64,000 nucleotides of DNA from a virus. The DNA lies in IMG/VR virus record IMGVR_UViG_3300043449_002688, positions 1 to 64,000 of that record; one strand, written 5' to 3'. The notes beneath the pieces were generated by a model. That model saw only the letters and a program-made list of their open reading frames with translations, had not been told where the DNA came from and made no database searches. The translations under genes and the position numbers were made by a program. The stretch's first letter is position 1. The number at the start of each line of letters is the position of its first letter. Shown here one piece after another: positions 29,513 through 50,841 of this stretch.

Positions 29513-30539
29513 ATAAACCTCCATACATGTCGCCAAATTTCATTAATACAATCTTTTTTTCTAAAACAGTTAATTGATTAAAAACGCTTAACATTTTAAT
29601 ATTAATTTGTAAATTCTCTACTTTGTCGTGAACAGATTCAGACGTATCTATAAATTTTTCAACAAAAGAGTGTTGTCCGTCAATTTTTTCATCAATACTG
29701 ACACCTTGATTTGCTGCAGCTTCAATTCTTTCAATATCAGAAGATGTAACGCCGCCGAATGATTGAGATACATAATCAACAACTTCTTCTTTAGAAATAG
29801 ACATTTTTGTTTCTTTGGCTTTTTTAGTTCTATATAAAATTCTTTTTTCTTTTGGAGGCAATTTTACCAAAGTTTGACTATTGTTTTCTTGCATTTCAAG
29901 AGTCATTTTTCCTATTGAGACTCCGTTAAATTCTCTATTATTTGTTATTCTTCCTTTTGCCGGAACAAATTTATCAACCGCAATCAATAGTCCTTCTGCT
30001 GCATTTTGAATTAAATCCATGTAATCTAAATATGGATTAGAAGTATTTCTCCAAAATAAATTAGCTCTATTGATTGCTAAAGGTAAATTTTTTTCACATA
30101 TTGCTTTTCTTATATCTTCCATTTTATTTAAGATTTTTGTTAAGGCACTTTTTTTTCTTCCTGTGTATTTTTCCAAAGCCCAAACACAAAATTTATAATT
30201 TATTTTAAATACTTGTAATTTTTTATAATTTTTTTGATGAAAAGCTGTGTACATTTTTTTAGAAAAGGTATCTTGCCTTTCTCTAAAATATACTCTAGCC
30301 GACAGCATATTTCCTTTGCCATCTTCATCATCTAAAATAAAATGCATAAACTGTTCATATATTTTGTTTCCATGAGGAGTATCTAATAGCGTTTTTTTAA
30401 ATGTTTTTTCTAAACTAATCAACTCATTAATGTATTGTTTTGTTTGTTTAGATTCTTTATTTTCTTTTTCTCTTAACATTACATTCATTTCTTCAACAAA
30501 AGAAATAAATAATATATCTGATTTGATATTCTTCCTCAT
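29505..30539 (-). CDS. Phage sigma70-family sigma factor
   Basis: KNLPLAINRA, YMDLIQNAAEGLLIAVDKF (region 2), VSIDEKI, LTVLEKKIVLMKFG. Confidence 0.85.
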   Translation of the reverse strand: MRKNIKSDILFISFVEEMNVMLREKENKESKQTKQYINELISLEKTFKKTLLDTPHGNKIYEQFMHFILDDEDGKGNMLSARVYFRERQDTFSKKMYTAFHQKNYKKLQVFKINYKFCVWALEKYTGRKKSALTKILNKMEDIRKAICEKNLPLAINRANLFWRNTSNPYLDYMDLIQNAAEGLLIAVDKFVPAKGRITNNREFNGVSIGKMTLEMQENNSQTLVKLPPKEKRILYRTKKAKETKMSISKEEVVDYVSQSFGGVTSSDIERIEAAANQGVSIDEKIDGQHSFVEKFIDTSESVHDKVENLQINIKMLSVFNQLTVLEKKIVLMKFGDMYGGLCE

Positions 30540-33088
30540 CCTATCTCCTGAACTTCACCAAGCTGATTGTAAATAGCCATTCGAGCATTACAATGCCTTT
30601 CCATTGATGGAGAACCTTCGACTTTAAAATCAAAAATAAAAGCATCTTTTTTATTATCTGTAACTCTAGTAGCTCTGCCTATTCCTTGTTTAACTTGAAT
30701 TTCCGATGTTCCGCCTTGCAAGTAAATTAAAGCCCCAGTAGGTTGAAGGTCTACTCCAGTAGAAATAGCAGAAGTTCCGATAATAAGTTTGGTTTCGCCT
30801 TTATTAAATCGTTCTACAATTGCTTCAGTGTCTGATTTCCAGTATTCTTTAGGAACAATATCTTTTAAGTTAGTTCCATCGGCATTTTGTCTGTTTGATA
30901 TTCCGCCGTGAGCAAATTCAAAAGGAACAGTAATATAATTTTTTAATTGCATAAACTGAGCGAATTCATCTATCAAAATAACTGTTTGTCTGTTTAGCAA
31001 ATTAACGCATTTATGTGCAATTTCTCCAGCCAACTTATTGACGTTTGGATTTAAATAAAGTTGTTGTCTTGTTTCTTTATTAATATCATTTGCTCCAGAA
31101 AACCCATGCGATTGAACTTTAAATATTTTAAAAAAAGGTCTAGAAAGATATCCTTTTTCTACTAATTCTTTAAAATCTTTTCTGTAAACTGTAGGACCTG
31201 TAATGCCTTTTAAAATCATTTCAGAGCCATCGGTTCTAATTTGTGTAGCAGATACAAAAAAACGATAATAACAATCTTTTAAGAGATTCATTACAACTTT
31301 TTCAAAAGTCTCTGCTGGGGTAGTATGACAATTATGTGCTACGATTCCTGTAGCGCCCGATGAAACTATAAAATTATGATTATCTTCAACTTCTATATCG
31401 TAAAGGTTAGATAAATATTTTTTTCTTTTTGGCAAATTAAATGAAAATTTTTCAACAGATACTACTTGTGAGTATCCATATTTACTTTTTTCAGGAATCC
31501 ATTTGTATGTTCCAACAAGATTTTGAAATCTTTTTGAAATTTTATAAGAAAGAGAAGGGTGTATATAATTTGATATCTTTTTGCTTAAAAGATTGTAACC
31601 TTCTTTGCTAAAAAGAATATACTTGTATCCTTTATTGACAGCAACTCGACATTCAATTCCTTTATTTTTAAACCAAGTGACAATAATTTCTTGAGATTGA
31701 TCGTCAAAAGATGATGTATGTAATTCGCCTCTATTGTCGCCATTTCCGTATCCATCATCCATAAACCATACGGCTAGCCCTTTATCATTTACATTTTCTA
31801 AAAATTCTTTTGTTATTTGTTTTTTTCTTTTTTCAAAAGGCAATTTTGAATAAAAAAGTTTTGTAGAAAAACGGTAAGCTGGTTTTTTTGCATATCCATT
31901 TTTTTCAATAAATTCTATATTTTTGATTCCTAAAAGATTTGCTCCCCATTTTAAGTAATTTAATTGTTTTGCAGAATGAATAACTCTCATTCTTATTCCA
32001 TTTTTATGAATAGAAATTGAACCGTCTCCCAAATAACTGCCTAAGATATATTGTTCTGAATCGCCTAAATATTCTGGAGAAAATGAACTTTTTTTATCAT
32101 TAACATTTCCTAGTATAAAATGTTTTTTTGTAAGATCCCCAGCTTTTACCCAACCTAAATTTGTTAATATTTTATGATCAGAAGTGCAAGAAAAGGTGGA
32201 ATTTGAACACCTTACTTTTACCATATTATCTTTTTTTTCTCTTTTCCACGTATTAGTTATTGTTTTATATTCAAATTTTTTTTCTATTTCGTTAAAAGAT
32301 AAAACTTTAGGAAGAGGTTTGCCTTTAATAAAATTATTATGCAATGTGCTTATTCTTATTGGGCCTTTTTCTGTTGCTATTTTTGTATCATAAGGAAAGC
32401 ATTCGTCCCATATTAAAACGTCTGTTTTGGTTAAATTATTCCATTGCTCTGAACCTTCTTCAACTCTTACTAAAGCTTGAGCTGTAGCAACAGTAAACAA
32501 TTTGTCTATCTCTTTTTTACCATCACCATACTTACCAATATATTTTTTACCAAAAAGTTTAATAAATTCTTTGTAAAGTTGATCTGTAATTGAGGCAGAT
32601 GGCGTAGCAATTATTGTTTTAAGGCCTAATCTTTTACAGAGTTCATAAATTATCCGACTTTTGCCTGAACCTGTAGGCAATTCAATTGCTCCATGACGCG
32701 CTTTTATAAGCTCTTCAACTGCTTCGCTTTGATAATCTCTTAAGAGTTTAGGTTGAGATGCCCAAGGAATTAGTTTACCTTCATCCAATTTATTTAAATT
32801 ATTGGTTAAATCCCAGTGAAATCTATTTTGTAAATCTTTATAAAGACCAGAATAAGTATATGGGTTGCCGGAATCATCATAAAACAACAAACATTTTTGC
32901 ATTTCAGACTTAAGTTGATCAAGCCTTTGATTAAAGCTATCTGGATCTGAATTTGCCCAACGATAATTTTGTTTTAATTTTTTAATTTGATAATCAACGC
33001 CGCGATCTCTAAATGTAAGAAAATTTTTTACTTCTTCTGAATCAGAAGGAAGATAAATCTTTGAAAAATCCATAAAAGACAATTTCAT
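30536..33088 (-). CDS. SF2 DExH helicase (UvsW-like) containing an intein
   Basis: LRDYQ, PTGSGKS, WDE[intein]CH, SAT, TGVD, QGIGRATR. Confidence 0.9.
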   Translation of the reverse strand: MKLSFMDFSKIYLPSDSEEVKNFLTFRDRGVDYQIKKLKQNYRWANSDPDSFNQRLDQLKSEMQKCLLFYDDSGNPYTYSGLYKDLQNRFHWDLTNNLNKLDEGKLIPWASQPKLLRDYQSEAVEELIKARHGAIELPTGSGKSRIIYELCKRLGLKTIIATPSASITDQLYKEFIKLFGKKYIGKYGDGKKEIDKLFTVATAQALVRVEEGSEQWNNLTKTDVLIWDECFPYDTKIATEKGPIRISTLHNNFIKGKPLPKVLSFNEIEKKFEYKTITNTWKREKKDNMVKVRCSNSTFSCTSDHKILTNLGWVKAGDLTKKHFILGNVNDKKSSFSPEYLGDSEQYILGSYLGDGSISIHKNGIRMRVIHSAKQLNYLKWGANLLGIKNIEFIEKNGYAKKPAYRFSTKLFYSKLPFEKRKKQITKEFLENVNDKGLAVWFMDDGYGNGDNRGELHTSSFDDQSQEIIVTWFKNKGIECRVAVNKGYKYILFSKEGYNLLSKKISNYIHPSLSYKISKRFQNLVGTYKWIPEKSKYGYSQVVSVEKFSFNLPKRKKYLSNLYDIEVEDNHNFIVSSGATGIVAHNCHTTPAETFEKVVMNLLKDCYYRFFVSATQIRTDGSEMILKGITGPTVYRKDFKELVEKGYLSRPFFKIFKVQSHGFSGANDINKETRQQLYLNPNVNKLAGEIAHKCVNLLNRQTVILIDEFAQFMQLKNYITVPFEFAHGGISNRQNADGTNLKDIVPKEYWKSDTEAIVERFNKGETKLIIGTSAISTGVDLQPTGALIYLQGGTSEIQVKQGIGRATRVTDNKKDAFIFDFKVEGSPSMERHCNARMAIYNQLGEVQEIG
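31331..32401 (-). mobile_element. 357-aa intein with a LAGLIDADG homing endonuclease, inserted in Walker B (DE|CH)
   Basis: Starts CFPYDT; block B TSDHKILT; LGSYLGDG and LAVWFMDDG; YDIEVEDNHNF; ends AHN before Cys+1. Confidence 0.93.
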
Positions 33089-33293: not shown

Positions 33294-34169
33294 ATGATTA
33301 TCCAGAAACAGCTCGCGCCCGACAAAAAAATATGTTACTGTTTAAATATGAGAACAATTAAAATAGCTAAAAAAGCGATATTTGATATATCGCATTATGA
33401 CGATAGGCATATAAAACGATCTGACTGGGAAAACCCTCCAAACTTTAGTAATCTCAAAAAAGCAAAAGATGTTTTTAAAACAAAAAAACACATTAATTAC
33501 CAGAAGTTATATACATTGCTTATAGCTAGAAGTAATGAATTAAAAGGTGATACTAAAGTTTCAAACGAAAATGTTGCTAAAATTTTAAAAATTTCAGTTA
33601 GACAAGTAATTAGATGTTTTCAGTTTTTAGAAAAACATAGGTTGATTTCTTCTATTAAAAAATGTTATAATTTCAATGGAAAATACAAGACAGTTAGAAT
33701 TATAAGGGTTTGGCTTACTTATTATAAGCACAAGTGTCGTCCAACCTATGAAAAAGTGTTTAAAAATGATATTCGTCCAGGCAAAGAAAAAGACGAACAA
33801 ATTTCTAGAAAAATTCCATTAAAGTTTAGGGTTTGGGGTAACTTTGTACCTAAAGCTCCTTGTAAATTTAAAAAAGAATTTGTTCCAATGAAAAAAATGG
33901 ACTACAGTTGGTTAAATTTAACAAAGCAAGGTTATATCAACAACGATATGAATATTGCTATTAACCAAATAGAAACAATAGCTTCTGACGTTAACATGAG
34001 AAAAAACATTTATAGTATTGTTGGGTACAATAAAGATTTTCTTATTTATAAAAACACCGGAATTAAGAAATCTGATAAATACAAAAAGAATTTTTCAGTA
34101 AAAGAAGAAACAAAATTTTTAAAGCAAAAATTTGAGCACTGGAGGGAAAATGGGCCTATTTCAAACTAA
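33294..34169 (+). CDS. Basic HTH DNA-binding protein, possibly a replication initiator
   Basis: SNENVAKILKISVRQVIRCFQFLEKHRLI winged-HTH pattern; true start may be MRTIK at 33348. Confidence 0.65.
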   Translation: MIIQKQLAPDKKICYCLNMRTIKIAKKAIFDISHYDDRHIKRSDWENPPNFSNLKKAKDVFKTKKHINYQKLYTLLIARSNELKGDTKVSNENVAKILKISVRQVIRCFQFLEKHRLISSIKKCYNFNGKYKTVRIIRVWLTYYKHKCRPTYEKVFKNDIRPGKEKDEQISRKIPLKFRVWGNFVPKAPCKFKKEFVPMKKMDYSWLNLTKQGYINNDMNIAINQIETIASDVNMRKNIYSIVGYNKDFLIYKNTGIKKSDKYKKNFSVKEETKFLKQKFEHWRENGPISN

Positions 34170-35925
34170 TAAACCTAAATCAGCTTCAAAGGTAATGATT
34201 CCATCAAGCCAAAAACTTGAGAACGAAGTTTTAACAACATTAAACCATATTGCTGAAATGGTAGGGGTTACATTAGGCCCAGGCGGAAAACAAGTTCTTA
34301 TTGAAAGACCAGAAATTGGAATGAAGCCTATTATGACTAAAGATGGAGTTACAGTTATTAAACATCTTGGTTATGAAGAAGCTACAAAACAGCTTATTCT
34401 TGAGGCAGCTAGAGATGCAGCTATTCGAACAGCAAACGAAGCTGGAGATGGAACAACAACTGCTACTATTCTTTCTAATAGTATTGCTCAAGCAGCAGCT
34501 TCGGTAGTAAAAGCAAACCCAAAACTCAGTCCTCAAAAAATAGTAAGGGAAATGCAAAAACTGGTTCCATATCTTACAAAAAAAATTGAATCTTACAAAA
34601 TTGATGTAGATGGCGAAAATTACGATGACGTTTTACTTAAAGTAGCTACGCTTTCTGCTAACGGAGATTCAGAGCTTGCTTCATCTATCGTCAAAGGTCT
34701 TGATTTAGTTGGAGAAGAAGGAGATATGACAATTGTTGAATCTCAAGGTCCAAGCAAATATGAAATTAATCGCATCAATGGATATACTGTTGAAAGAGGA
34801 TATGAAGAATCTTGTCGTAATTTTGCTAATGGCTTTATCAATGATAAAAGCGGAACAATGGTTGTTCTTGAAAAACCAATTTTTATTTTATACGATGGCA
34901 TTTTAAATGACATGTCTCAAGTTTTTGAACCTCTTACTCGCTTAAACGAACATTTTAATGAAATTAAATCTGATTCTAAAAATGTTGTAATTGTTGCTCA
35001 TGGTTTTTCTGAAATAGTGTTAGGCGATTTGCATACGAATTGGAATCATCCTCAAACTACAATTAAAATGTATCCAATGTTGACGCCAGAAAGAGCTATT
35101 CAGAATTGGAGGACTAATTTCCTTTATGATCTTCAGGCTTATACTGGAACTCCTGTTTTTAACCCAATAGATAAACCTATCGTAGATATGGACCCTCAAA
35201 TTTTGGTAGAAAATAATCGCGTTACTAGAGTAGAAGTATCTCGATACAAATCAATGATTTTTGCAAACGAAGATCAAGAAGCTATTTCAATTAGAGTAGA
35301 GGAATTGCGACTACAAAAACAAAATCCAGAATCAGAATATGAACTAAATGATCTTAATGTTCGTATTGGAAAGCTAACCTCTGGTATCGTTCGCTTAATT
35401 ATTTCTGGCCCATCTGCTGGCGAAACCAGAGAAAAAAGAGATAGAGCAGATGACGCATGGATGGCGATTAAGGGAGCAATTAATTATGGAGCTGTTCCTG
35501 GCGGTGGGTATGTATTAGTACGTTTAGCTGCAGACTTATCAGTAACCTCATCTAAGATGCCGATTGGAACAACAAGATATGCTACTGAAATTTTATCTTT
35601 AGCATTATTAGCGCCAGTAGAAACTCTTTATAGAAATTATGGCTATAATGAAGAAGAAATTGGCCAACAAATAACAGCCATCTTAAATAATGATTCCCAG
35701 GCTTTTGATGTTTCTGAACAAGAATGGGTAGATAAACATAGCCTTTTAGACTCGCTACCAGCGGTAGTAGAAGCAGTAAGGAACAGTATTTCTATTGCAT
35801 CATTGCTTGGCACTGTTGGAGGTATTGTAGCTTTTAAAAGGGACTATGATTCAGATAAACAAGAAGAAAAGCTTGTTAGACAATTTGAAACGAGTATTGG
35901 TGAAAGAGGAAGCTTAAGGGAATAA
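34150..35925 (+). CDS. groEL: Chaperonin GroEL-like
   Basis: TLGPGG, TKDGVTV, AGDGTTTA, GAVPGGG; GGAGGG RBS; lacks the GGM tail. Confidence 0.93.
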   Translation: MGLFQTNKPKSASKVMIPSSQKLENEVLTTLNHIAEMVGVTLGPGGKQVLIERPEIGMKPIMTKDGVTVIKHLGYEEATKQLILEAARDAAIRTANEAGDGTTTATILSNSIAQAAASVVKANPKLSPQKIVREMQKLVPYLTKKIESYKIDVDGENYDDVLLKVATLSANGDSELASSIVKGLDLVGEEGDMTIVESQGPSKYEINRINGYTVERGYEESCRNFANGFINDKSGTMVVLEKPIFILYDGILNDMSQVFEPLTRLNEHFNEIKSDSKNVVIVAHGFSEIVLGDLHTNWNHPQTTIKMYPMLTPERAIQNWRTNFLYDLQAYTGTPVFNPIDKPIVDMDPQILVENNRVTRVEVSRYKSMIFANEDQEAISIRVEELRLQKQNPESEYELNDLNVRIGKLTSGIVRLIISGPSAGETREKRDRADDAWMAIKGAINYGAVPGGGYVLVRLAADLSVTSSKMPIGTTRYATEILSLALLAPVETLYRNYGYNEEEIGQQITAILNNDSQAFDVSEQEWVDKHSLLDSLPAVVEAVRNSISIASLLGTVGGIVAFKRDYDSDKQEEKLVRQFETSIGERGSLRE

Positions 35926-45781: not shown

Positions 45782-46001
45782 AATTGAACTTATTGAAAAA
45801 ATCAAAAATGATGACGATTTTATTAATTTGTTAAAATATAACAACAGTTTAAAAAACCTATTATCTGAACATCCCACAGGAGTATCTGATTCAGTTATAT
45901 GCAAAGCGCTTTGTATATCTCAAGCCGAGCTTGACGAAGCCCTTAGATCTGCTATAATGAAATTCAAAGAAAGTGTTGGGATTACCGATGACGAAATTTA
46001 A
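45774..46001 (+). CDS. Small HTH protein, sigma region 4-like
   Basis: GVSDSVICKALCISQAELDEALRSAIMKFK. Confidence 0.5.
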   Translation: MNKIELIEKIKNDDDFINLLKYNNSLKNLLSEHPTGVSDSVICKALCISQAELDEALRSAIMKFKESVGITDDEI

Positions 46002-48090
46002 ACAGCTAATCAATCCTCATTCTCATTCAGATTACAGTTTAGACGGTGCAGCAACAGTTTCTCAAATAGTTGAAAGAAATAAACAACTTGGCGCTTCATA
46101 TGTAACCTTAACAGAACATGGAAACATGAATTCTGCTATGGAGTTATATAAGACAGCAAAGCAAAAAGGCATTACCCCCATTCTTGGGATGGAAGCTTAT
46201 CTAATCAACCCTTGGCACAATGAATATGTAGAAATTTATCGAAAAGCTATTTCTTCTGGAGTATTGCAAATAAGAGAAAAAAACCCAGAAGCTATTGAAA
46301 ATGCCATTCAAAAAAAGGCAATGAATCATTATTTACATATTACTGTCCATTTTAAGGACGCTTGGGCTTATCAATATTTTTGTAAAATTTCCCCAAAAAT
46401 GTGGTCTCGTTCTATTAAAAAATACAGCGAAGAAAAACCATTGATTACAATGGAAGAATTAGAAGCCGCCGCAGGCCATATTACTATTGGCTCTAGCTGT
46501 ATGAAGGGTCCAGTTCAATACTTTATGTTGCCATCAAAAGATGGACTGATCCCTCCTCAGCCAGAAAAATCAAAATACATGTATGAATGGCTGAAAAGAA
46601 TTGCAGGAAAAGAAAGTTTTTTCGTAGAAGTTTTTCCTCATCAAGTTACACATGAATGGCAAAAACCAGAAAAAGATTATTCTGGTCGAATCATTAAAGA
46701 AGGCTATTTTAAAGCCCACGAATGCACCTGTCATGCTCCAAACGGAGATTACCAAAAACCTCTTAATGAGTGGGTTATACATTTAGCAGAATCAAACAAG
46801 GATAAGGCCATTATTTCTTTAGATTCTCATTATGCGACAAAAAATCAAAAAGTTATCCAAGATGCAAGGCTTGGAAATGGCGATGAAAATTGGAGATTTT
46901 ATAATTATTATCACATAATGTCCACAGAAGAAGCCGCTGAAGTTTTAAGAAAAACGCTTGGCATTAATGATAGAAAAATTGAAGAATGGGTTGAAAACTC
47001 ATATGATTGGGCTTCAAATTTTGATTCTTTTAAGCTAGAAACTTCTGAAACACGATGGATTTTAGCTGGAGATTCAGACCGATTTATGAATAGGTTAAAA
47101 TCAACTATTGATAAATGGGGAAGGATGGATTGGTCAAATCAAGAAATGGTTGACCGACTTAAACATGAAATTCAAGTTTTAGCTCATAATAAAAAGCTTA
47201 ACCTTTTGGCTTACTTTGAAACGATAGAAGATGTTGCTAATTTTTGCAGAGAAAATGGCGTATTAATGAACGTTCGAGGCTCTGCAGGCGGGTCACTATT
47301 GCTTTATTTAATTGGGGTTAGCGGCATTAACCCAATGAAACATGACCTTTCTTTTGGACGATTTTTGACTGAAGGAAGAATTGAAGCAAATACTCTTCCT
47401 GATGTTGATATGGACGTTTCAGATCAAGAAAAAGTTATTGAATACTTAAAAAGTAAGTATGGAGATGGCATTTGCAGGCTCTCAACTGATTTATTGCTTC
47501 GAATTAAATCTTCAATTAAAGATGCAGAAAGATCTATATTAGGTAAGGTCAGAAAAGAAACTGAAGATCTTTGTAAAAAACTGCCCTCTACTCCACAAGG
47601 AACCGAAGATATTGCATTTATTTTTGGGTTTAATGACAAAAATACTGGCGAACATATTCCTGGCATTTTTGATAAAAATTTTGCATTACAAAAATATGCA
47701 GAGGATAATGCTGAGATTTGGAATGTAGTAAAAGAAATGCTTGGAATCCAACGCAATAAAAGTTCGCATGCTTGTTACGTTGGCGAAACCCTAATCTTAA
47801 TTTACGAAGACAACCAAGTAAAAGAAAAAAGGATAGATGCATGCGACGGAAAAACAGTATTTACAGGCCAAGGCTCGATAGCCAAAGCAAAATTAATAAA
47901 CCAGGGGAAGAAAAAAGTAAAAAAATACACACTAGAGAACGGAAAAACTTTAGTTGTAACTCCAGATCATTTGATGTTAACGAAAAAAGGCTGGATGACA
48001 ATAGAGCAAGTTTTTCAAGAGGGAGAGGGCCTAATATCACTATCGAAGACTGTAGACGGGCTGCTGAAGAAAGAAAAGGAAAGTGTTTAA
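45988..48090 (+). CDS. dnaE: DNA polymerase III alpha, N-terminal part, ending in the N-intein
   Basis: PHP motifs HSHSDYSLDG, TEHG, DSHY; RGSAGGS; PDVDMD; then SSHA|CYVGET. Confidence 0.95.
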   Translation: MTKFKQLINPHSHSDYSLDGAATVSQIVERNKQLGASYVTLTEHGNMNSAMELYKTAKQKGITPILGMEAYLINPWHNEYVEIYRKAISSGVLQIREKNPEAIENAIQKKAMNHYLHITVHFKDAWAYQYFCKISPKMWSRSIKKYSEEKPLITMEELEAAAGHITIGSSCMKGPVQYFMLPSKDGLIPPQPEKSKYMYEWLKRIAGKESFFVEVFPHQVTHEWQKPEKDYSGRIIKEGYFKAHECTCHAPNGDYQKPLNEWVIHLAESNKDKAIISLDSHYATKNQKVIQDARLGNGDENWRFYNYYHIMSTEEAAEVLRKTLGINDRKIEEWVENSYDWASNFDSFKLETSETRWILAGDSDRFMNRLKSTIDKWGRMDWSNQEMVDRLKHEIQVLAHNKKLNLLAYFETIEDVANFCRENGVLMNVRGSAGGSLLLYLIGVSGINPMKHDLSFGRFLTEGRIEANTLPDVDMDVSDQEKVIEYLKSKYGDGICRLSTDLLLRIKSSIKDAERSILGKVRKETEDLCKKLPSTPQGTEDIAFIFGFNDKNTGEHIPGIFDKNFALQKYAEDNAEIWNVVKEMLGIQRNKSSHACYVGETLILIYEDNQVKEKRIDACDGKTVFTGQGSIAKAKLINQGKKKVKKYTLENGKTLVVTPDHLMLTKKGWMTIEQVFQEGEGLISLSKTVDGLLKKEKESV
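47773..48087 (+). mobile_element. Split intein N-fragment, 105 aa
   Basis: Cys1 (CYVGETLI), block B VTPDHLMLTKKGW, followed by a stop codon. Confidence 0.9.
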
Positions 48091-48920
48091 GCGAGGAATA
48101 TAAAGGATTAAAATACCCACTTAAATGGCAATGTGATCATGGGCATTTATGGATATCAAATTTTCATAATATAAAATATTCAAAAACTTGGTGTCCATCT
48201 TGTTTTAAAAATAAAACTCGCCATAGGTTAACTTTTAGTTTTGAAAAAGTTAAAACAATTTGTTTATCAAAAGGATTTGAAATCATTTCTAAGGAATATA
48301 AAAATAGCTTAGAACAAATTGAAGTCAAACATATACCTTGCCAAACATCTTTTAAAACTACCTTTCATAATATTACGCATAAAAAAGTTTGTCCAGAATG
48401 CTCTTTAAGAAAAAGAGCCGATATAATAGAAGCTGAAAATTTAGTTAAAGTAAAAGAAGGAAAAATAATAGGTTTTGCTAAAAAATCTAAAAATAATTCA
48501 ACATGGGAATGCGCTAAAGGCCATCAATGGAGAACCACTTGGAGTAATATTAAAAAAGGTTCTTGGTGTCCTTTTTGTGCAGGTAAAAAAAGTATTTCTT
48601 CAATACATAAACAAGCTGTTGCTAAATTATATCAACATAAAAGATGGGATGCTGAAAAAGGATATCAGACTACAATCGAATTAGAAGATATCGTAAATGC
48701 ATTAAAGTCTAAATGTGTTTATTGTGACAATAATGCTACCAATGTAGATCGTAAAAACTCAAATTTAGGGCATTTAAAAGAAAATTGTGTTCCATGTTGT
48801 GGAAGATGTAATAGAGTCAAAAATAATTGTATTTCTTATGAAACCATGCTAAAAATAGGCAAGATATTAAAAGAAGAGGAACAAAATGAAGATAATAAAA
48901 GCGGAGGAGCTGGGTTATGA
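47841..48920 (+). CDS. Zinc-ribbon-repeat HNH-type homing endonuclease between and overlapping the dnaE halves
   Basis: AAGGA-N7-ATG at 47841; three WxCxxGH/H...CPxC repeats; CVYC..VDR..GH..NCVPCCGRCN. Confidence 0.8.
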   Translation: MRRKNSIYRPRLDSQSKINKPGEEKSKKIHTRERKNFSCNSRSFDVNEKRLDDNRASFSRGRGPNITIEDCRRAAEERKGKCLSEEYKGLKYPLKWQCDHGHLWISNFHNIKYSKTWCPSCFKNKTRHRLTFSFEKVKTICLSKGFEIISKEYKNSLEQIEVKHIPCQTSFKTTFHNITHKKVCPECSLRKRADIIEAENLVKVKEGKIIGFAKKSKNNSTWECAKGHQWRTTWSNIKKGSWCPFCAGKKSISSIHKQAVAKLYQHKRWDAEKGYQTTIELEDIVNALKSKCVYCDNNATNVDRKNSNLGHLKENCVPCCGRCNRVKNNCISYETMLKIGKILKEEEQNEDNKSGGAGL

Positions 48921-48993
48921 GCAAGTTTATGACTTATCAGTTTTTCACGAAGATCACAGTTTTGTTCTTGAAACTGGCAATGTAACGCACAAT
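48886..48993 (+). mobile_element. Split intein C-fragment, 36 aa
   Basis: MKIIKAEELGYEQVYDLSV..HSFVL..VTHN followed by Cys+1. Confidence 0.92.
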
Positions 48994-50841
48994 TGCGGAT
49001 TTATTATTTGCGATAAGCCAGTAACTGACTATATGCCTGTTATTAAAATAAATAACGAATGGGTCACAGGCTTTTCTCCAAAGTCAGTTGAAGCAGCAGG
49101 CGGCGTTAAATTTGACTTATTGGGCCTTAATACATTAAGAGACATTCAAATTTGCCTGGATTCTATTAGAAAACGAACAAATGAGAATCTAGATCCATGG
49201 AATTTGCCTTATGACGAAAAAGTTTGGGATATTTTTATAAAAGGCGATGTTGATGGAGTTTTTCAATTTGATACACCAACAATTCGTCCATATGTCATAA
49301 AAACAAAGCCAAAGACCATTGATGAACTTGCTGCGCTAACGGCTCTTGGCAGACCTGGAACGCTAGATGCCCCTGCAGGAGACTCTACGGCAAGGACATT
49401 AGCAGAGCTTTATGTTGACAGAGCAAACGGCGAACCTGTTCAGTATTTGCATTCTGATCTTGAACCTATTTTAAAGCAAACTTATGGAATTCAATTGTTT
49501 CAAGAACAAACAATTAAAATTTTTACATCAATAGGCGGAATGTCTGATGCAGAAGCCGATGAGGTTCGTAGAGGTATAGGCAAAAAGAATAAAGCAGTTC
49601 TTGATATAGCTGCAGAAAAACTTAAGATTGCCTGCTTAAAAAGAGGATGGACCGAAGAACAAGTTGCCGTATTAATTCAACAAATTGAAGCATCTGCTAA
49701 CTATTCTTTTAACAAATCACATGCAGTTTCATATGCTTATGTAGCTTACGCTTGCATGTATTTAAAAACAAAATACAAGCTTGATTGGTGGAAAGCCATT
49801 CTTTCTAATGCTACAAAAGATGAACTTGCTACTAAATTTTGGAAAAACGTACAAGAATTTACCACACTTCCAGATATTAATATTTCTACAGATGATTATG
49901 AAATAGTTGAAAACAAAATCGTAGCGCCTTTTTCAATCCTTAGCGGTGGGGTTGGTGAAAAAGCTTATGAAAGTTTAATGAAAAATAAACCTTATAAAAA
50001 TCTTGAGCACTTTGTTTCTTGTCATTTTCCTACAAAAGAAGAAGAAGATCGCAAGAAAGCCTTGAAAAAGAATGGTATTGATTTAGAAAAAAATGTAAGA
50101 AAATCAGCAGTAACTGCAGCTATAGCTAGAAAATTAATTGCTGGGGGCGTTTTAGATTCATTATTCGAGCCAAATATGTTAATTGAAGAAAAATTGTTTC
50201 AATTTGAACAAGTTAGAGGTCAAATTAAAGGCAAAAAGCCAGAAAAAGTGCCAGATGAATATGTTGGAGTATCTACTTTAGGTAAATACTTATTAAGAAA
50301 AGAGCTTATTCAAATCCATTCTGACGATTTAAGAGAAATAATGCTCCCTAGCCGACATGGTAAAAAACTACCTTGCAGAATTGGAAATGAATATGAGTCT
50401 TGGTTTTCTCAAGATGGGGTAATTGTACTTGATGGAAATCAAATACAATGGTTTAGAAAATACTTTGATTTAGGCGTTTCTATAGAAACTTTAGTTCAAA
50501 AATTTGACAGTCTACTTCAAAATAAAGACCCTTATCAAATTTCTGTTCCTAGTCAAATAGGACACAATGAAAGGTATTTCCAGGCAATAGGTTATGTTGT
50601 AGGCGAAAAAGCTTTTCCTTACAAAAATAAAACCAAACAAGCAACTAGATTAGTTATTGATTTTAATGGATATTTTACTGAAGAAATGATGTGGCCAGAG
50701 CAAGACGAAGACCAAGCGGAAATGGGCTTTAAAAGCCTTCCCGTATTGGCAATATTTGGATTAAATAAAAAAGGAATTTATTTAAAAAAGGTTTTAAAAC
50801 TCTTGAGCGAAACTGACTTAGAAAAGTACAACATGACTTGA
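48886..50841 (+). CDS. dnaE: C-intein plus DNA polymerase III alpha, C-terminal part
   Basis: GAGGA RBS; THN|CGFII; KFDLLGL, GVFQF, GRPG, YSFNKSHAVSY. Confidence 0.95.
   Translation: MKIIKAEELGYEQVYDLSVFHEDHSFVLETGNVTHNCGFIICDKPVTDYMPVIKINNEWVTGFSPKSVEAAGGVKFDLLGLNTLRDIQICLDSIRKRTNENLDPWNLPYDEKVWDIFIKGDVDGVFQFDTPTIRPYVIKTKPKTIDELAALTALGRPGTLDAPAGDSTARTLAELYVDRANGEPVQYLHSDLEPILKQTYGIQLFQEQTIKIFTSIGGMSDAEADEVRRGIGKKNKAVLDIAAEKLKIACLKRGWTEEQVAVLIQQIEASANYSFNKSHAVSYAYVAYACMYLKTKYKLDWWKAILSNATKDELATKFWKNVQEFTTLPDINISTDDYEIVENKIVAPFSILSGGVGEKAYESLMKNKPYKNLEHFVSCHFPTKEEEDRKKALKKNGIDLEKNVRKSAVTAAIARKLIAGGVLDSLFEPNMLIEEKLFQFEQVRGQIKGKKPEKVPDEYVGVSTLGKYLLRKELIQIHSDDLREIMLPSRHGKKLPCRIGNEYESWFSQDGVIVLDGNQIQWFRKYFDLGVSIETLVQKFDSLLQNKDPYQISVPSQIGHNERYFQAIGYVVGEKAFPYKNKTKQATRLVIDFNGYFTEEMMWPEQDEDQAEMGFKSLPVLAIFGLNKKGIYLKKVLKLLSETDLEKYNMT

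Follow-up and report, generated by a model that had tools for sequence, protein, structure and literature searches.

Fractured genes, in which the halves of a conserved gene carry a split intein and enclose a free-standing endonuclease gene, are known from phage-like environmental DNA. Three dnaE loci of this type, with integration points other than the cyanobacterial one, as well as overlaps of 6-69 bp between the endonuclease gene and the C-terminal intein fragment (IntC), have been described (Dassa et al. 2009, PMC2677866). The split inteins of cyanobacterial DnaE (Ssp and Npu; PDB 1ZD7, 2KEQ, 4KL5 and 7QIL) reside in the same host protein at Y|CFNKSH, while the split intein gp41-1 (PDB 6QAZ) originates from a fractured gene for a DnaB-like helicase. 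The present analysis deals with the dnaE gene of IMG/VR virus record IMGVR_UViG_3300043449_002688, which comprises 154,801 bp and is 96% complete according to CheckV; the window, i.e. the whole stretch of DNA that was analysed, corresponds to bases 1-64000 of this record (64,000 nucleotides (nt)) and has a G+C (GC) content of about 33%. The organization of the gene makes it highly likely that it constitutes a fractured phage dnaE, in which a mobile cassette composed of an N-terminal intein fragment (IntN), an HNH-type homing-endonuclease gene and an IntC occupies the HA|CG palm motif of the only DnaE-type polymerase of the phage. The fractured DnaE, represented by its two parts DnaE-N and DnaE-C, is the sole DNA_pol3_alpha match in the whole record.

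With respect to its layout, the locus closely resembles the published fractured genes, as an earlier sequence-only reading of the window had pointed out and as Dassa et al. (2009) bear out. A replication gene harbors a split intein with an endonuclease gene between its halves, all parts are adjacent on one strand, and the integration point is non-cyanobacterial, although HA|CG may or may not equal one of the three dnaE sites reported. The 3' end of the endonuclease gene overlaps the start of IntC by 35 nt as compared to 6-69 bp in the published cases, IntN with its 105 amino acids (aa) is situated at the top of their range of 88-105 aa, and the IntC of 36 aa compares to 33-54 aa. Differences concern the cargo and not the layout: the published endonucleases are of the GIY-YIG or Vsr-like (EDxHD) type, whereas the enzyme encoded in the window features zinc ribbons and an HNH/PacI-like end. 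Moreover, an endonuclease frame overlapping the whole IntN is not described there. Fractured dnaE genes, non-cyanobacterial sites, a positive IntN combined with a negative IntC and the overlap of nuclease and IntC are thus all published, and the locus does not establish a new category. What it adds in detail is a charge swap within one allele, three layouts of one family and a probable overprinting of IntN; in addition, the locus contributes a natural split intein with Cys+1 and an SSHA/CGF junction together with the surrounding allelic family.

The cyanobacterial split DnaE inteins share with this element the host protein, the canonical split point, an IntC of 36 aa and class-1 chemistry with Cys1 and Cys+1, and among solved structures they come closest to the family profile (E 5e-10). 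They differ in their insertion at Y|CFNKSH instead of the HA|CG palm site, in the position of their halves at distant loci instead of adjacent ones with an endonuclease in between, in the residues ending IntC (ASN versus THN with its penultimate His) and in the charge of the interface strands, which amounts to about -4/+4 in Npu (IntN/IntC) versus +5/-1 in the window. On the other hand, gp41-1 agrees with the window in its phage or metagenome origin, in being part of a fractured gene and in its polarity, i.e. a lysine-rich IntN strand and an acidic IntC, but deviates in its host protein, in its IntN of 88 aa (105 aa in the window) and in a Ser instead of a Cys at position +1.

Architecture of the locus

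All features described in this section are located on the plus strand. The open reading frame (ORF) of DnaE-N extends from 45973 or 45988 to 48090, the gene call of the contig beginning at ATG 45988 (P0001, 700 aa). It comprises the N-extein of 595 aa (45988..47772), which covers the PHP domain together with the beginning of the palm, matches the Pfam profile DNA_pol3_alpha as far as position 215 of 260 and ends with ...GIQRNKSSHA. The N-extein is directly followed by IntN (47773..48090, coding 47773-48087), which consists of 105 aa and a TAA stop, features Cys1, the block B motif TPDH and GWM, and carries a net charge of +4. The second half of the gene, the DnaE-C ORF (48886-50841), is preceded by a Shine-Dalgarno (SD) sequence of its own, GAGG (48876..48879), which is situated 6 nt before the ATG and within the end of the endonuclease ORF. 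DnaE-C starts with the IntC MKIIKAEELGYEQVYDLSVFHEDHSFVLETGNVTHN (48886..48993; 36 aa, net charge -5), encompassing blocks F and G and the terminal His-Asn (THN), and proceeds into the C-extein of 615 aa (48994..50841) with the +1 Cys (CGFIICDKP...), the FDLLGL motif including the third catalytic Asp, the finger domain, YSFNKSH, an HhH domain and the stop. DnaE-C supplies the remainder of the DNA_pol3_alpha domain (profile positions 212-260). These coordinates agree with the earlier reading, according to which DnaE-N terminates in SSHA followed by 105 aa of N-intein and a stop, while DnaE-C possesses its own ribosome-binding site, ATG and a 36-aa C-intein ending THN|CGFII.

The sequence-only reading had further claimed a natural split intein at a non-cyanobacterial site, which was confirmed. 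The sequence ANYSFNKSHAVSY is unbroken within DnaE-C, the cyanobacterial split site is intact as a continuous YSFNKSH, and the insertion SSHA|CGF is located more than 250 residues upstream of it. The nearest intein-less relative, P0002 (1211 aa, 87% identity), reads ...RNKSSHACGFIICDRP at the corresponding position, i.e. SSHACGFII is joined without interruption, and no interruption is seen in over 100 related DnaE proteins of phages (1150-1230 aa). At the DNA level, the empty site of five intein-less relatives corresponds to KS.H(A/P)|CG. Since P0002 reads through, splicing would be expected to yield a protein of 1210 aa with the native sequence and thus, as had been proposed, to restore SSHA-CGFII and the HAxG motif. 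An alignment to Taq Pol III alpha places the insertion at the palm position HA|AG, which precedes the KMDFLGL motif with its catalytic Asp by about 40 residues and is a typical target of inteins.

Between the two halves, the endonuclease ORF (47841..48920) runs in the -1 frame, which is open from 47760, and terminates at TGA 48918-48920, 35 nt into dnaE-C. It encodes 275-359 aa, and its conserved domain begins near 48036 (ITIEDCRR...). The protein is composed of treble-clef zinc-ribbon repeats followed by a PacI-like HNH end (CVYC...VDRKNSNLGH...NCVPCCGRCN). Pfam recognizes zinc-ribbon modules only (DUF4379, DUF723), while the PHROGs matches, phrog_559 'HNH endonuclease' (3e-20) and phrog_681 (2e-20), represent HNH/endonuclease VII-like families; the only PDB match is the HNH enzyme PacI. 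A pattern search with the HNH motif retrieved only unrelated free-standing nucleases, some of them in giant-virus bins.

Identity and relatives of the split intein

When IntN was searched as a single sequence against PDB, gp41-1 was the best match (E 3.6e-4), followed by the Npu and Ssp DnaE inteins. A profile built from three IntN members instead favored the cyanobacterial split DnaE inteins (E 5e-10 to 2e-9) over gp41-1 (E 4e-5), and the IntC profile aligned with the IntC of Ssp and Npu over its full 36 aa (E 3e-5), covering residues 3-36 of Npu IntC. Since gp41-1 falls below the DnaE inteins once the family profile is used, the likeness of the window intein to gp41-1 appears to be partly a convergent charge pattern. 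The residues required for splicing are conserved: Cys1 (CYVGETLILI directly after SSHA) is kept in all 8 of 8 family members; TPDH forms residues 63-66 of IntN and aligns with block B of Npu and gp41-1, its Thr and His being unchanged in the window and in the loci L014 and L023; and in blocks F and G (VYDLSV.H..HSF ... THN|C) H35, N36 and C37 are unchanged in the same three loci. The Asp of block F is intact in the IntC of the window. Moreover, the halves form separate ORFs, each with its own start, and the break lies in the loop that separates blocks B and F and accommodates endonuclease insertions, as in naturally split inteins. Because the IntN profile detects solved split DnaE inteins at E 5e-10 and the insertion point is exact with respect to intein-less homologues, the element is judged from its sequence to be a class-1 split intein and not a chance match. 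The former designation as an 'independently split' intein, however, is not demonstrable, given the canonical split point, an IntC of 36 aa as in Npu and a profile whose nearest matches are the cyanobacterial DnaE inteins.

Four loci of this intein family were compared at the DNA level, i.e. the window, L014 (identical to L027, same contig), L023 (identical to P0124) and L036. L014 is located on a phage contig of 169.6 kb with 46% GC and syntenic flanks. Its DnaE-N ends in an N-intein of 93 aa, its endonuclease ORF in the -1 frame overlaps both neighbors, and its IntC-DnaE-C begins at an ATGA overlap; the reading frames of its two DnaE halves differ. In L023, a contig of 169.3 kb with high GC content, IntN, endonuclease and IntC are arranged as in the window. 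L036 (52% GC) is devoid of the endonuclease: an IntN of 88 aa and a stop are followed by a 39-nt spacer containing AAGGAA and by IntC. Compared to the window, IntN is 43% identical in L014 and 40% in L023, and IntC together with five extein residues 66% and 59%, respectively, whereas the endonuclease of L014 shows 35% identity over 224 aa. The CxxC...DR...GH...NCxxCCxxCN motif is kept in the endonucleases of both L014 and L023. In L023, the frame of DnaE-N and IntN remains open for roughly another 115 aa beyond the N-intein, where it overlaps with the endonuclease gene, and the N-precursor may consequently carry a long out-of-frame tail.

A HMMER search with IntN against 1.84 billion protein representatives yielded 94 matches. 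At least 10 more metagenomic DnaE N-fragments (P0038, P0121, P0123, P0125-P0130 and P0133) end in this N-intein, their Pfam match breaking off at position 215 of the profile; among the top matches inspected, almost all end shortly past the N-intein. In P0136, P0141 and probably P0143, IntN is fused in frame to the endonuclease and a stop precedes IntC. A contiguous intein at the HA|C site was not found among the inspected matches of this search, and the more distant ones inspected represent inteins of RNR, portal, PolA or of DnaE at other sites. The family therefore spans three layouts, with the nuclease fused to IntN, encoded in the -1 frame or missing, which look like snapshots of an endonuclease-bearing intein in the course of becoming split; furthermore, the allelic family extends from 33% to high GC content.

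Further searches with individual parts of the element delivered few additional members. The IntC pattern found no family member in 185,579 cellular genomes, while in the metagenome set it retrieved L036 and L027. A degenerate TPDH..LT..GWM pattern mostly hit other inteins, L014 being the only hit in this family. A locus search with DnaE-C among viral contigs gave no match, the corresponding search with P0038 revealed intein-less relatives only, and a word-based search for homologues of IntC (region 1-60) recovered nothing but the protein of the window itself.

Other split or fractured polymerases were encountered along with the family. The metagenomic protein P0126 (290 aa) represents a middle portion of DnaE: at G|SAGG it begins with a C-intein belonging to another split intein, and it ends with an N-intein of the HA|C family; due to these two different ends, this DnaE would be divided by two split inteins into three or more pieces. 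In the related phage DnaE N-fragments P0038 (1040 aa) and P0128 (1119 aa), the split N-intein at HA|C is accompanied by a contiguous LAGLIDADG intein situated earlier in the protein; that of P0038 interrupts the PHP domain at ICSSC|F. The viral contigs L007, L008, L015 and L020 encode other N-terminal split-intein halves at ...SAC|L(T/S)GD of a PHP-domain polymerase-like protein, ending about 30 aa past TPDH. The dnaE gene of Bacillus phage vB_BauM_KLEB27-3 (L059, OM634661.1) was considered as a cultured example and dismissed, as its break after ...GLFQIE represents a different site and lacks intein ends. It is annotated as two coding sequences with an HNH endonuclease gene between them, which may reflect an intron or an intein-less fracture.

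Proposed splicing and homing, and alternative explanations

According to the proposed mechanism, the halves would be translated apart as DnaE-N-IntN (700 aa) and IntC-DnaE-C (651 aa). Subsequently, the intein halves would dock via antiparallel strands located at the C-terminus of IntN and at the N-terminus of IntC, and trans-splicing would follow the class-1 route, involving Cys1, TxxH, the terminal His-Asn and Cys+1, to release a polymerase of 1210 aa with a native SSHA-CGFII junction. The endonuclease, in turn, most likely cuts the intein-less dnaE of co-infecting related phages at the empty HA|CG site and thereby would spread the whole cassette. The distribution of the cassette is patchy: it is absent from the closest relatives of the window and present in the very distant DnaE lineage L014. 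In addition, the window shares 40-66% identity with L014 or L023 in the intein parts as compared to 31-40% in the exteins, the latter values referring to the comparison with L014. Homing of the cassette is suggested by its absence from the closest relatives in conjunction with its occurrence in the distant L014 at an identity exceeding that of the exteins.

It could be argued that the locus encodes a conventional cis-splicing intein containing an HNH domain in the same frame and that two frameshifts, introduced during assembly or sequencing, only make it look like three ORFs. DnaE-N and DnaE-C indeed share the same frame with the endonuclease exactly one frame off, and P0136 as well as P0141 carry IntN and endonuclease in one frame. 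These fused members, however, still stop before IntC. The three-ORF layout recurs in the independent assemblies L014 and L023, which are only 31-43% identical, the halves of L014 are in different frames and L036 is split without any endonuclease. Moreover, IntC has its own SD sequence and ATG, and a contiguous version was not found among the matches inspected. With these observations at hand, the frameshift explanation is close to refuted, and since the same cassette occupies the same site in distant phage DnaE proteins and a contiguous version was not found, sequencing or assembly error as the cause of the split appears effectively excluded. A different objection would concede the split but assume that the intein halves do not splice and only clamp the polymerase pieces together non-covalently. 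Given that Cys1, the Thr and His of block B, the Asp of block F, the terminal His-Asn and Cys+1 are all intact and invariant in the family, such a non-splicing clasp is quite unlikely; it would also leave the intein domain in the HAxG palm motif beside the active site, where tolerance is improbable. The split intein is hence very probably active, judging from its residues.

Several points weigh against the interpretation as an active, mobile cassette. Both splicing and nuclease activity are predictions, and the window represents a single metagenomic assembly. The HNH motif has an Arg in place of the usual first His (VDRKN), as is the case in PacI, but the match to PacI is weak (E 0.21) and a single-sequence AlphaFold model of the endonuclease reached a predicted local distance difference test (pLDDT) value of only 35. 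Furthermore, a canonical start codon is missing next to the conserved domain of the endonuclease, and block B of P0130 reads TPNQ instead of TPDH, so some family members are possibly inactive.

Expression of the endonuclease gene

In the window, not a single stop occurs within the 105 codons of the -1 frame across IntN, whereas codon shuffling predicts 5.5 (P 0.0007) and synonymous resampling 9.6. In the rest of dnaE of the window, the -1 frame is interrupted by a stop about every nine codons, and the longest open run comprises 30 codons. L014 features an open run of 81 codons across IntN (P 0.008) with its only stop located upstream of an ATG, and L023 lacks stops where 2.6 would be expected (P 0.04). 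A natural control is available in L036, which has no nuclease: its -1 frame harbors 5 stops across IntN versus 4.7 expected. The nuclease frame is thus open across the N-intein only where a nuclease is present, which suggests overprinting.

A suitable start for such a reading frame is provided in all three nuclease-bearing loci by a -1-frame ATG or GTG that straddles the codon of the invariant intein Cys (xxA/G-TGC), and AAGGA precedes this start by 7-9 nt in the window and L014. In the window, the candidate is ATG 47841 with AAGGA at 47829-47833. The straddling A/GTG on its own is weak evidence, since it is forced by codon pairs of Glu, Gln, Lys or Ala with Cys and is found in the nuclease-less L036, too. 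An alternative start is the non-canonical ATC 48036, located behind the strong motif GGGAGAGGG (48021-48029) with a gap of 6 nt.

Taking these patterns together, the more likely reading of nuclease expression, held with modest confidence, is that the gene overprints about 80 codons of the N-intein. It is possible, albeit less probable, that the nuclease is not overprinted and either starts at ATC 48036 or is reached by -1 ribosomal frameshifting from IntN. The first of these routes agrees with the position of GGGAGAGGG and with the beginning of homology to other endonucleases at that very ATC, and the second with a canonical slippery heptamer, A_AAA_AAA (47919-47925), which lies in the zero frame at IntN codon 50 and is followed by an open -1 frame, as well as with the in-frame fusions of IntN and endonuclease within the family. 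The SD-ATC pair and slippery heptamers are both absent from L014 and L023, though, and a -1 frame that is open across IntN in three nuclease-bearing loci but closed in L036 better fits a start far upstream, e.g. at the straddling A/GTG. Programmed -1 frameshifting as a conserved route to the nuclease was discarded, because the slippery heptamer occurs in the window only. If overprinting held true, intein and nuclease would form an interlocked composite element that is hard to separate.

Charge polarity of the intein halves

An exact recount substantiates the charges of about +4 for IntN and -5 for IntC that had been estimated from the sequence: IntN has a net charge of +4 and an isoelectric point of 9.0, IntC of -5 and 4.7. 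The reversal with respect to Npu and Ssp, which had been deduced for the whole fragments, likewise applies to the local strands, as the interface strand of IntN, QGKKKVKKYTLENGK, carries +5 and the initial 13-residue segment of IntC, MKIIKAEELGYEQ, carries -1, as opposed to about -4 and +4 in Npu. The siblings at the same site are of the opposite type. Their IntN strands are negative, with -1 in L014 (QGVRTITEYTLENGA), -3 in L023 (QGEREVVEYCLENGS) and -2 in L036 (RGDRFVNEYVFDNGE), their IntC starts carry +1, +2 and +3, respectively, and the charges of the whole fragments (IntN/IntC) amount to -6/-1, -6/-2 and -7/+1. Reversed charge is therefore not a trait of the family; going by these residue counts, the window intein is a natural charge-swapped member whose siblings are Npu-like. 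This swap probably explains why gp41-1 emerged as the best single-sequence PDB match.

An N-positive/C-negative polarity is known from gp41-1 and gp41-8 (Dassa et al. 2009, PMC2677866), and the charge zippers of gp41-1 and Npu are opposite (Beyer et al., bioRxiv 10.1101/546465). In the latter study, splicing with wild-type Npu IntC persisted after the charges of Npu IntN had been swapped; reversed charge alone consequently does not predict orthogonality, and orthogonality of the window intein to Npu cannot be read off its charges. Nevertheless, interface charges within one allele run from Npu-like (N-/C+) to inverted (N+/C-) and thus offer useful starting material for work on partner specificity or its engineering. 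Both peculiarities of the locus might be combined, with slightly less than even confidence, into one reading, wherein the nuclease starts at the A/GTG inside IntN, about 75-80 codons are read in two frames and the charges of both interface strands were swapped in a coordinated manner. The charge swap would then represent a natural test of whether polarity determines partner specificity within one intein allele.

Transcription and genomic context

The strongest sigma-70-like promoter match of the region (45931..45958, plus strand) is situated about 30 nt 5' of dnaE-N and consists of TTGACG, a spacer of 16 nt and TG-TATAAT, an extended -10 element (11/12). A promoter scan before dnaE-C revealed no site of at least 10/12. 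Due to this 11/12 match before dnaE-N and the lack of a comparable one before dnaE-C, dnaE-N, the endonuclease ORF and dnaE-C are probably located on one transcript.

The window additionally encodes portal, terminase, RNR, SbcC/D-like, UvsX-like and DnaB-like proteins, which identifies its source as a large uncultured tailed phage. What looked like a split of RNR or SbcC in the window proved to be the normal small and large subunits and a GroEL-like gene. An SF2 helicase (ResIII/DEAD and Helicase_C; 30536-33088, minus strand) houses a second intein (about 31331-32308), which is contiguous and contains a LAGLIDADG_2 endonuclease domain, and hence one cis-splicing and one split intein would coexist in the same phage. 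A GroEL-like chaperonin (Cpn60_TCP1, E 1e-41) is encoded at 34132-35925 on the plus strand and adjoins a strand-switch region at about 33.1-33.3 kb.

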